Assembly: GCF_963921235.1 (NCBI RefSeq)
Contig: NC_086108.1
Span: 45,324,001 to 45,388,000, forward strand
Direction of reading: 5' to 3'
From: Mobula hypostoma
Lineage: Eukaryota
DNA length: 64,000 bases
How positions within the stretch are numbered: position 1 is the stretch's first letter; each line of letters starts with the position of its first letter. This document shows, in pieces, positions 24,008-26,364 of this stretch. The notes beneath the pieces were generated by a model that did not search any database, was not told the origin of the DNA, and saw only the letters and a program-made list of their open reading frames with translations. The position numbers and the translations under genes were made by a program.

Positions 24008-24196
24008 TGTTGTGTTCTTATTTTTATACGTACCATGGGTTAACAATAAAGAATCATATTCTGGAAGAATTAGAATTTTATTTATAATAACAGAACCAAA
24101 CCATGTTTTTACCAAGCCATGCTCTAGATCATTCTAACATTTCTGCGCATGCTCAGAACTCTTTCCAATCACGTTCTGACACGTCATATCACCACA
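24008..24196 (-). repeat. 3' LTR
   Basis: TG...CA termini. Differs from 26175-26364 by about 18 substitutions and 1 indel (manual count). Preceded on the minus strand by the purine tract AAGGAAAGGAA (PPT, about 24200-24210). Confidence 0.9.
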
Positions 24197-24481
24197 TATT
24201 CCTTTCCTTAAAAAGAAAAACAATTAGCAACATTAACCAAACAAATGCATAATTTAACATGTTTCTATCAGTCTCGCTGGGGGTTTACGAACACGACTAG
24301 ACCTTCTAAGTGGTTCACACAGTTCCTCTGTGTCATTGTTATTTCCATGTTTTATCTGGTCTGCATCAGTTCACTGAAACTCTGAAGTTGGCTCTTTCTT
24401 GAGGCCTTTGCAATTTCTTCTTAACACTGCCCCGCCTTCTGTTTGGACCATGTATGATCTGGGTTGTACTATAAGTATTGT

Positions 24482-24850
24482 AGCTTTCTTAATTCTTTCA
24501 CTTCCATTTGTATTGAAATACGAATCTTCTTCATCTAATTCATTCATTAACCGTGTAATCTCTTTTTTATGCTGAGACTTCATCATTTCAATAAAACTTC
24601 TCAATTCCTTCACTTGTGCTTTCACTTCTTCAGTTGGATCCTGATTCTTGTCACTCTTTGGCTACAGATCAGTATTGTACTGTATCGGCAAGTTTGGCTT
24701 CTATCCTCCTGCAGAGGTGAGATTGTGATGGAATGCATGGCCCATTGATGCATGAGCATTACTTCCAGAGGGCAAAATTGCAACTCCTGGTTTTGGTGGC
24801 AATGCTTCATCAGATGCTGGTAACAAAGGGATGGGTCTGGGAGCTTTCTT
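24482..24850 (-). pseudogene. SH3KBP1: Captured intronless fragment of SH3KBP1/CIN85-like (CD2AP family) C-terminus
   Basis: Reads KKAPRPIPLLPASDEALPPKPG...[57 protein letters not shown], then [10 protein letters not shown] in a shifted frame, then ERIKKA. The recalled CIN85 end is LPPKPG...[53 protein letters not shown]. Confidence 0.85.
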
Positions 24851-26158
24851 TATGACTTCATACCCTTTCATCAAGTCACTGTATTCTGACTCTGTGTGAC
24901 TGTCCAAGACTAATACTCTTTTTCATCAAATTCAGTCTCTCACAGGCAGATAAACCCAGTATTGACTGTACATTCCTTGACACTACCACAAATGAAAGCA
25001 TGAGCACAATATTTTTGTGCGATACTTTTGCCTCACATGTTCCTTTAACTGGAAAGTCTGCACCTGAATACCCAGTTACTTTTATATTTGTCTTATGTAA
25101 CCTTGGTCTTGGCTTTAATGCATTAAACTCAGATTCTGCTAGAACATTTACTTACGCCCCAGTAGCAAGTTTAAACAGAATATTGTTTTGGTTCACTTGC
25201 AATGGAATATTCCAGTCATTCTTACTTTGTTTGTTTTTACAAAGCACATCTATATAACACTCCTCAAATTCGTTTTCTAGCACAGCATTTACTTGTTTTA
25301 TTTTCTTTCTACTTCTTTAACAGCATGAAAAATGATTACTCTTACCAGTCGTTGCACATTTTCCCTTACTCTGGACACTGTTTTGGTCGATGCTGCTGCC
25401 CACAGCCATCACACATTTTTTTTTTATCTCAGATGACGTCTTGCTCTCTGTCAGTTTTGTTGTCGTTTTATTATTTCTTCTAATATGTTCGCACTTTTTT
25501 ACAGCATCTACGTGGCAGCTTTCAGTGAAAAGTTCTGTAGCCTGCGGCGTCGTGGTTTCCGAAGTTTTGCAAAGCATCAAAACTTTTTCTAAGTCTAAAT
25601 CTTGTTCTCTTAACAGTCTTTCTCTCAGACCATTATCCTGAATGCCACAAACAATTCTGTCTTTAACGAGAGAGTCTGTCAGTTCTGCAAACTCACATCT
25701 TTTGCTCCAGCGTCTCAATTCAGTAACATATTGATCAATTGTTTCAGCCAATTTCTGCGTACATTTGAAAAAGTTATACTGCTCATACATCACATTACGC
25801 TTCAGTATACAAAATGCTTCAAATTTGTCCATTATCGACTTCAAATTTAAATTATCTCCATCTTCAAAACAAAGTGATTATATATCTTAATTGTGTCGTC
25901 ACCTATTACGTGGAGTAGAAGCGCAGCTTTCATTTTTTCCCCTTTTTTTATCTGCTTCAATGGCCAATAAATGTATTTCAAAACACTGCTTGAATTTTTT
26001 TCCAGTTCTCAGCTACATTCCCAGTCAGCTGAAGTGTCAGTGGAGGTTGCAAACCTTCCATTTTTAAAACTGTTAGCAAACACTAAAACAGTTCAAACTC
26101 TTTTTTTCTTCGATTATCTTCGACTCTTCTGTGTTCGAAAATATATTATTCTTCCAGA

Positions 26159-26174
26159 CCGACTTCTGCCACCA
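26159..26174 (-). promoter_or_regulatory. Primer-binding site, tRNA-Leu-like
   Basis: TGGTGGCAGAAGTCGG directly follows the 5' LTR and is close to the complement of the tRNA-Leu 3' end (TGGTGTCAGAAGTGGG). Confidence 0.7.
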
Positions 26175-26364
26175 CATTGTGTTCTTATTTTTAGATGTAC
26201 TGTAGGTTAACAATAAAGAATCGTATTCTGGAAGAATTAAAACTTTTATTTACAGCAACAAAACCAAACCACGTTTTTACCAAGCCATGTTCCAGATCAT
26301 TCTAACATTTCTGCGCATGCTCAGAACTCTTTCCAATCATGTTCTGACACATCATATCACCACA
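26175..26364 (-). repeat. 5' LTR
   Basis: Direct repeat of 24008-24196. Begins TGTGGTGATATG on the minus strand. Confidence 0.9.

Follow-up and report, generated by a model that had tools for sequence, protein, structure and literature searches.

How did a piece of the coding sequence of SH3KBP1 come to lie where the polymerase gene of a long terminal repeat (LTR) retrotransposon would be expected, and does it do anything there? The question is raised by the element at positions 24008-26364, minus strand, of a 64,000-nucleotide (nt) stretch of the genome of Mobula hypostoma (contig NC_086108.1, positions 45,324,001 to 45,388,000; hereafter the window). Very probably, this element is a dead member of a non-autonomous LTR family of the Ty3/gypsy type that captured a piece of spliced SH3KBP1 message, amplified with it and carries it as neutral cargo. 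The first-pass annotation, made from the letters of the window, had proposed a capture of this kind.

The 96-residue reading frame at 24371-24661 matches the solved coiled coil of SH3KBP1 (5abs, 2e-08; 2n64, 2.6e-08), and over the matched part it is 96% identical to ray SH3KBP1. When a protein collection was searched with the cargo frame, 18 proteins among 128 candidates passed an E threshold of 0.001. Fourteen of them are named SH3KBP1 (the ray ones up to 96% identical), two unnamed proteins carry the same SH3 domains, and the others, both from stingray, are called 'uncharacterized' (P0001) and 'rab GTPase-binding effector protein 1-like' (P0017). The identity first proposed is thereby confirmed. 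In the less decayed copy L003, the match to the solved SH3KBP1 chain extends over residues 11-71 of 75 (1.2e-14). The C-terminal region of ray SH3KBP1 contains ..KDVIKKAPRPIPLLPASDKALPPKPG.., and the window element covers residues ~540-667 of 671, which comprise the final proline-rich linker and the whole coiled coil, and stops four codons short of the SH3KBP1 stop. It is not a copy of the whole gene and lacks the SH3 domains. The segment of 360 bp first placed at 24482-24850 is therefore real, but its bounds are refined to 24483-24856 on the minus strand (~380 nt, with the microhomologies at both ends counted in).

The intact host gene with its SH3 exons lies on a different contig (C18:80649802-80909871), where we located it with the N-terminal 539 residues as the query; a query of the genome with the whole of SH3KBP1 gave 66 scored matches, all to the C-terminal piece and thus to element copies. 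The last four coding exons of the host gene (C18:80902064-80902210, 80906391-80906640, 80907729-80907792 and 80909830-80909871) have GT-AG introns of 4180, 1088 and 2037 bp between them. The window element aligns to exons one to three of this set, with DNA identities of 97.7%, 95.6% and 88.1% and no intervening sequence, and its own exon joints fall at 24817/24818, 24566/24567 and 24507/24508 (minus strand), so that it spans three junctions of this genome's SH3KBP1 locus without introns. All 30 chimeric copies examined in detail align in one piece to spliced SH3KBP1 at 91.6-97.9% identity (starting at 105-116 and ending at 453-487 on a 503-nt spliced reference). The three introns are missing from every one of them, indicating that a spliced mRNA was copied. 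Three small public runs also contain high-depth contigs of 357-2189 nt that are colinear with the cargo. These contigs extend into the upstream sequence and the stop-codon region of the host gene, and hence are the host SH3KBP1 message, or at least an intron-less form of it.

Contigs of public runs with four organism codes cover the element, and some of them bridge the joints between element and cargo. One run (X19) alone supplies 3659 pieces covering the element; record 17 of run X2 is identical to the window over 24442-24574, and record 26 of run X8 covers 24400-24517. The junctions are thus supported by independent public runs, as the initial description had asked of them. It is true that coiled coils yield weak spurious matches, and that a Pfam scan of the window's own decayed frames returned nothing above threshold, all initial hits being sub-threshold. 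Nevertheless, an assembly artefact or a chance likeness among coiled coils is scarcely credible given a DNA identity to host exons of 95.6-97.7%, joints common to 30 of 30 copies and bridging contigs from runs of different organism codes.

Several genome matches to the window element end at element position 1507. At four loci of the same genome (L037-L040), elements of 4.4-4.7 kb share with the window copy both positions 1-1507 (LTR, gag and protease; 84-88% identical) and positions 1876-2357 (integrase tail, polypurine tract and LTR). In L038-L040 the two shared blocks are separated by ~2.4 kb encoding RVT_1 (8e-18), Integrase_H2C2 and rve, and upstream of RVT_1 lies an aspartic protease (Asp_protease_2, 28.4 bits vs a cut-off of 24.3), giving the domain order protease, RVT_1, Integrase_H2C2, rve. 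The reverse transcriptase (RT) of these relatives is closest to the solved RT of Ty3 (4ol8, 2.9e-20; Ty3 Gag-Pol 7q5b, 2.1e-19). No RNase H family was reported for the frames of the relatives that were scanned, and no env was seen in the 4.4-kb parents, where gag and pol take up the length. For a 22-nt word from the RT region, the genome has 238 occurrences vs five for its control; this and all copy counts below were made with words of 22-24 nt, allowing up to three mismatches, and are lower bounds.

Because both flanks are common to these parents and the window copy, and RVT_1, Integrase_H2C2 and rve lie between the flanks in the parents, ~2.4 kb of pol was replaced by ~380 nt of SH3KBP1 coding sequence, and the difference is not an insertion. 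The SH3KBP1 segment is accordingly no normal part of full-length family members, which have RT and integrase sequence in its place, and the autonomous-type family sought since the element was first described is the one represented by L037-L040. As had been noted at the outset, neither RT nor RNase H nor the integrase core is present in the window copy, which is therefore a non-autonomous derivative rather than a complete Ty3/gypsy member.

What the window copy retains is the frame of an LTR element, in the parts originally listed. Read along the minus strand, it begins with a 5' LTR of 190 nt (26175-26364), a direct repeat of the 189-nt 3' LTR (24008-24196). The repeat match comprises 121 nt at 93% and 70 nt at 89%, with 16 differences over 187 aligned positions, and both LTRs begin with TG; at the end of the 5' LTR, where other copies have CA, the window copy has TG. 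Directly 3' of it is a stretch resembling a primer-binding site (TGG..., 26159-26174), and the position right after the 5' LTR reads TGGTGTCAGAAG in most other copies. A decayed gag-like region follows (25317-26061), recognised from its reading frames, with the zinc-knuckle part degenerate in the window copy; the less decayed L003 has two C-x2-C-...-H-x4-C knuckles within one 563-residue frame. No Pfam gag family was matched by the window frames or by the further family frames scanned. Next come the decayed aspartic protease region (24896-25316), confirmed in fuller relatives by matches of the homologous region to Asp_protease_2, gag-asp_proteas and RVP, a 39-nt linker (24857-24895; SEYSDLMKGYE..), the cargo, and the C-terminal tail of the integrase (..VQPRSYMVQTEGG..; 24255-24482), which aligns with the 3' end of the parents' integrase and extends to the family's natural stop. 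The polypurine tract (24197-24209, of the AAGGAAAGGAA type) adjoins the 3' LTR in every tabulated two-LTR copy, and in all tabulated copies the TGG-starting stretch and the purine tract are at the expected places.

Along the minus strand, the frames of the element are successively a gag-like and a protease-like one, both broken, then the LPPKPG frame, the coiled-coil frame and ..VQPRSYMVQTEGGAVLRRN... The cargo is interrupted by two in-frame stops and a 5-base deletion, and the integrase-tail frame of this copy meets an earlier stop at 24371-24373.

The joints between element and cargo are microhomologies. At the 5' joint, parent ..CTAGGAGTCATAAAAAAAATT.. (..LGVIKK..) and host ..AAAGATGTCATAAAGAAAGCTCCC.. 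(..KDVIKKAP..) have 8 nt in common, GTCATAAA (24849-24856), and at the 3' joint, host ..GGAATTAAGAAAGCACTT.. and parent ..ACACAGAAAGCTACAGTACTT.. have 7 nt in common, AGAAAGC (24483-24489; both on the minus strand). Both joints are in frame, and the same ones recur in 30 of 30 chimeric copies examined. Among 200,000 random pairings, a shared run of at least 7 nt arises at a frequency of ~0.0009 and one of at least 4 nt at 0.023, so the microhomology of the SH3KBP1 chimera exceeds the chance expectation at both switch points.

The copies differ in what is left between protease and cargo. The original chimera kept ~55 codons of the RT N-terminus, as seen in the stingray protein P0001 and in copy L041, both of which have the full linker of 189 nt; the window copy lacks 150 of these nucleotides in frame, and its 39-nt linker is the remnant. 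Two different 150-nt deletions occur among the 30 copies, both in frame. The form SEYSDRME..(VI/EL/KS) is found in 22 copies and the form SEYSDLMKEYE|VI (type B) in three, the window copy included, and another five (L007, L008, L013, L020 and L024) are frame-shifted or shortened, with RME/RMA remnants; since the 30 copies were chosen by their likeness to the window copy, these shares are biased.

The chimera has spread widely. A search of the genome with the whole element gave 49 scored matches at 81-94% identity, and a 24-nt word across the first SH3KBP1 exon-exon joint, which cannot occur in the intron-bearing gene, is present 146 times vs none for its control. Nine of 11 distinct two-LTR copies are flanked by a perfect 5-bp target duplication, each different; another agrees at three of five bases. 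The two copies that resemble each other most have unrelated flanks. A replication-defective, gene-transducing element that spread as its own family, as initially suggested, is what these counts and duplications describe. LTR-to-LTR distances within copies range from 0.054 to 0.120 (median 0.074; 12 copies, two of them a duplicated pair), and the mean distance of the cargo from the host exons is ~3.7% (418 differences in 30 copies of ~381 nt); the two distances fit each other if both reflect decay since insertion. The same joints are carried by stingray proteins of two species (P0001; P0017 and P0031), indicating that the captures predate the split of the lineages or that elements moved between them.

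An intron-less cargo could also have come from an SH3KBP1 processed pseudogene made by a long interspersed nuclear element (LINE), if the pseudogene landed in an LTR element and the composite was then duplicated as DNA, and LINE-like repeats are indeed common around the loci. This origin is very improbable. The cargo is an internal mRNA fragment that stops 16 nt short of the coding sequence's end, and around it we found no poly(A) or LINE-type hallmark but a direct join to integrase sequence. Moreover, 2.4 kb of pol were replaced rather than interrupted, the joints are microhomologies with the element, and the copies have 5-bp duplications of their own outside the LTRs and unrelated flanks.

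We favour, instead, a capture during reverse transcription, and infer co-packaging, template switching and mobilisation in trans from the structures described. RT copying the RNA of a 4.4-kb autonomous element would have switched at AGAAAGC in the integrase tail to a co-packaged spliced SH3KBP1 mRNA, landing four codons before the stop. After copying ~380 nt, it would have returned to the element at GTCATAAA, the match of 8 nt, where the RT coding region starts. The resulting element would have retained the LTRs, putative primer-binding site, polypurine tract, gag, protease and integrase tail, lost RT, RNase H and the integrase core, and been copied to well over 100 places, presumably with the enzymes of autonomous relatives; a later 150-nt in-frame deletion of the RT remnant would have given the window form. 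The same parent family would also have captured a spliced RABEP1 mRNA, and recombinants would have come to carry both cargos.

The second cargo came to light in the stingray proteins P0017 and P0031, from two species, which read from a gag knuckle through protease into a RABEP1-like piece and then a further segment. In the genome, a 114-residue query over the RABEP1-to-SH3KBP1 joint gave 150 scored matches of 508 candidates. RABEP1-type loci include L042-L045 (e.g. C21:183613915-183617250); L044, which matches Pfam Rabaptin at 3e-42, consists of RABEP1 residues 65-153, the SH3KBP1 coiled coil (host positions 334-473), RABEP1 residues 156-172 and the integrase tail. The host RABEP1 exons lie at C71:53174546-53174343 and 53165279-53165116, and the 9063-bp intron between them is missing from the elements; for SH3KBP1 and RABEP1 alike, the identity of the host exons to Mobula proteins is 98-100%. 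Microhomologies of 4, 4-5, 7 and 8 nt mark the four RABEP1-related joints, all of which are in frame. The uninterrupted RABEP1 site occurs 28 times (one gene and 27 retro-copies) vs none for its control, and the joint of RABEP1 with the coiled coil 158 times vs six. Two uninterrupted copies, L047 and L048, have other 5' joints and the same RABEP1|integrase joint. One parent family thus made at least two captures plus several mosaics, and cargo-bearing copies (~146 + 158 + 27, ~330) equal or exceed in number those with the RT word (238).

Does the cargo do anything? The coding sequence itself shows no protein-level constraint. Measured against the host exons, the 30 copies differ by 344 non-synonymous changes (306 sites) and 74 synonymous ones (75 sites), a ratio of 1.14. 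By codon position, the cargo differences number 202, 125 and 91, with no concentration at third positions, and of the changes common to at least five copies seven are non-synonymous and two synonymous. In pairwise comparisons among copies, the ratio of non-synonymous to synonymous differences per site (pN/pS) is 0.87 for the cargo (pS 0.064), 0.67 for the integrase tail (pS 0.106), 0.62 for the protease (pS 0.101) and 0.50 for gag (pS 0.231). The values for gag thus point to purifying selection in the past, and the cargo behaves neutrally, as a passenger, with a non-synonymous to synonymous rate ratio (dN/dS) of ~0.9-1.1. For the RABEP1 piece, with only six copies to compare, there are 26 private non-synonymous changes (290 sites) and 11 private synonymous ones (76 sites).

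These values bear on the idea that the cargo is functional, an in-frame fusion of Gag, protease and coiled coil that oligomerises and either aids entry into parent particles or interferes with the parent. Such a role would explain why coiled-coil pieces were kept and why the chimeras spread. In its favour, each of the two cargos is a coiled coil from an endocytic adaptor, and the solved SH3KBP1 coiled coil was taken up in full. Neither of the secondary 150-nt deletions breaks the frame, and in some copies a frame of 480-563 residues still runs from gag through the cargo. In addition, six of six primary joints are in frame (RT|SH3KBP1, SH3KBP1|integrase, protease|RABEP1, RABEP1|coiled coil, coiled coil|RABEP1 and RABEP1|integrase), and the expected in-frame share of 5-8-mers common to parent and host coding sequence is 0.36-0.41. 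Codon periodicity, which we considered as the cause of the in-frame joints, was rejected at this expected share. The nominal probability of six out of six is ~0.002-0.005, but it is overstated, and the in-frame count inflated, because the forms were found via protein matches and annotated reading frames. Given the lack of constraint on the protein, we regard a functional peptide as improbable. Most likely, the benefit of keeping a frame open as far as the native stop would have lain with the RNA or its translation and not with the peptide; RNA stability may be what it serves.

A broader form of the same thought would make the ray Ty3/gypsy elements serial collectors of coiled-coil pieces, which spread only if the cargo is in frame between protease and integrase tail, so that a self-associating polyprotein parasitises parent particles. 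The six in-frame joints and the two independent coiled-coil cargos from one parent family point that way, although we consider it unlikely. If it were true, the defective element would be a parasite of the parasite, equipped with borrowed host oligomerisation modules.

Capture of a spliced message followed by amplification as neutral cargo also has observations to contend with. Joints that are all in frame are not obviously predicted by a purely neutral passenger. The target duplication of the window copy is not intact, with two of five bases agreeing. The sampled parents carry stops and deletions, and among the copies and parents examined none was shown to be active. Mobilisation in trans is deduced only from shared ends. 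The copy numbers are minima, and the detailed sample leans toward the window copy. Finally, gag is about twice as diverse as the rest: in the 30-copy alignment, its mean distance (element positions 305-1045, window ~25320-26060) is 0.14, vs 0.06-0.08 for cargo, protease and tail. Decay of CpG sites was rejected as the full cause of this excess and explains only part of it, as the non-CpG distance of gag is still 0.10-0.12 vs 0.05-0.064.

The trees built for gag, protease and tail place parents and RABEP1-type copies within the SH3KBP1-type copies, with high support for some of the groupings. Since the diversity of gag exceeds that of the cargo, the history would have to include recombination with other lineages. 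The cargo may have arisen once and been moved onto other gag backgrounds by recombination of co-packaged RNAs.

Acutely transforming retroviruses are replication-defective and helper-dependent, with pol or env replaced by cellular sequence; they are infectious and selected in tumours, and their cargo is under strong selection. The first-pass annotation had likened the window element to them, and the likeness holds in so far as both are defective and a captured cellular mRNA takes the place of pol. It is otherwise loose, because the present backbone is Ty3-like, intracellular and in the germ line, its parents show no env, its joints are like those of RT switching and its cargo is neutral.

The closest parallel is with the animal LTR-mediated retrocopies of Tan et al. 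2016 (Genome Res 26:1663, PMC5131818), which are reported to arise via template switching at microsimilarities (median 6 bp, in 25 of 29 junctions), to include multi-gene chimeras and products that are often in frame, and to undergo further retroposition as non-autonomous LTR elements. As in those cases, an mRNA fragment here replaces part of the internal reading frames, both LTRs are kept and microsimilarity (here 4-8 nt) marks the switches; the fragment is intron-less, pol is replaced and there is no poly(A). The present case differs in that a single chimera is present 146 times or more in the genome of a cartilaginous fish, alongside ~27 copies of a second cargo and ~158 of a recombinant, and in that the joints recur in annotated proteins from two other ray species.

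Other parallels are more distant. Maize Bs1, the classic case in plants (reviewed in PMC13317346), is an LTR retroelement that lacks an RT of its own and joins pieces of three host genes in a hybrid frame; it is reported to be transcribed and translated. The fusion in frame of host gene pieces in an element without RT is alike, but Bs1 is a plant element with three genes in one copy, whereas here the host is a vertebrate, two cargos occur separately and combined, and a retained protein is not in evidence. The capture of FAM8A1 by HERV-K, as summarised in PMC5131818, also joins a vertebrate LTR element to a captured cellular mRNA, with microsimilarity at the fusion points, but is a single untranscribed processed pseudogene and not an amplified family. 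MaLR copied by MERVL, mentioned in the same paper (PMC5131818), is a non-autonomous element with an autonomous partner. It resembles the present family in sharing LTRs and ends with an autonomous family and in having lost its enzymes. The internal sequence in cases of the MaLR/MERVL type is not known to be a recognisable spliced host mRNA.

Our literature search found no paper linking SH3KBP1 with a retrotransposon or with an elasmobranch, SH3KBP1 being absent from all 15 papers listed. The mechanism itself is known, but its scale here is large, the family being unusually prolific. Because the mechanism is in print (PMC5131818) and nothing we found shows a function for the captured coiled coil, we regard the significance of the case as only moderate. 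Its interest lies in having the donor exons, an autonomous-type parent, both switch points and hundreds of descendants in one vertebrate genome. Gene-fragment chimeras can at least match their parent in copy number, and they recombine with one another, which offers a route to exon shuffling. The in-frame rule at every joint raises the question of what a defective retroelement needs for its spread. There is also a practical consequence: such elements pollute gene annotation, and the proteins annotated as 'uncharacterized' and 'rab GTPase-binding effector protein 1-like' in two stingray species are their translations.

Some further observations concern the surroundings of the window element and its relatives. 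A 202-residue open frame (..ERVQRRFTRMLPGL..; window 26241-26849, plus strand) adjoins the 5' LTR and matches no Pfam family; similar peptides adjoin copies L037 and L040. We take this frame to resemble the 3' part of a LINE reading frame, on which account the element probably sits in or beside an older repeat. L037 (the same as locus L030, C66:13782001-13792000) has lost RT and has a larger, partly unrelated insert between the shared blocks. A single 390-residue frame in this copy runs from protease straight into Integrase_H2C2 and rve, and its LTRs, with five differences over 186 positions, are the youngest pair seen.

A RABEP1 isoform model from an electric ray (P0038, 703 residues) also has a reverse-transcriptase Pfam domain, and the gene model may have absorbed a retroelement. 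Intron-less copies of the Sds3 domain (SUDS3) lie directly downstream of a gag-protease frame, with 32 genome matches (L049-L052, e.g. C76:11185477-11188941). These were rejected as chimeras of the same parent family, as there was no blastn match and the gag-protease frames are 25-32% identical at the protein level; they belong to a separate, only distantly related element family.

In L014 (C45:66842440-66847799), a stretch of 592 nt between protease and cargo repeats the gag zinc-knuckle region and is either an internal duplication or the product of a further template switch. Three chimeric copies lie within 47 kb of one another (L007, L008 and L020; C1:168383460-168385788, 168428353-168430681 and 168424451-168426620, respectively). 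Two of them are identical, in the same orientation and ~45 kb apart, and the third is inverted and identical where compared, so that the cluster looks like a recent segmental duplication containing the element.

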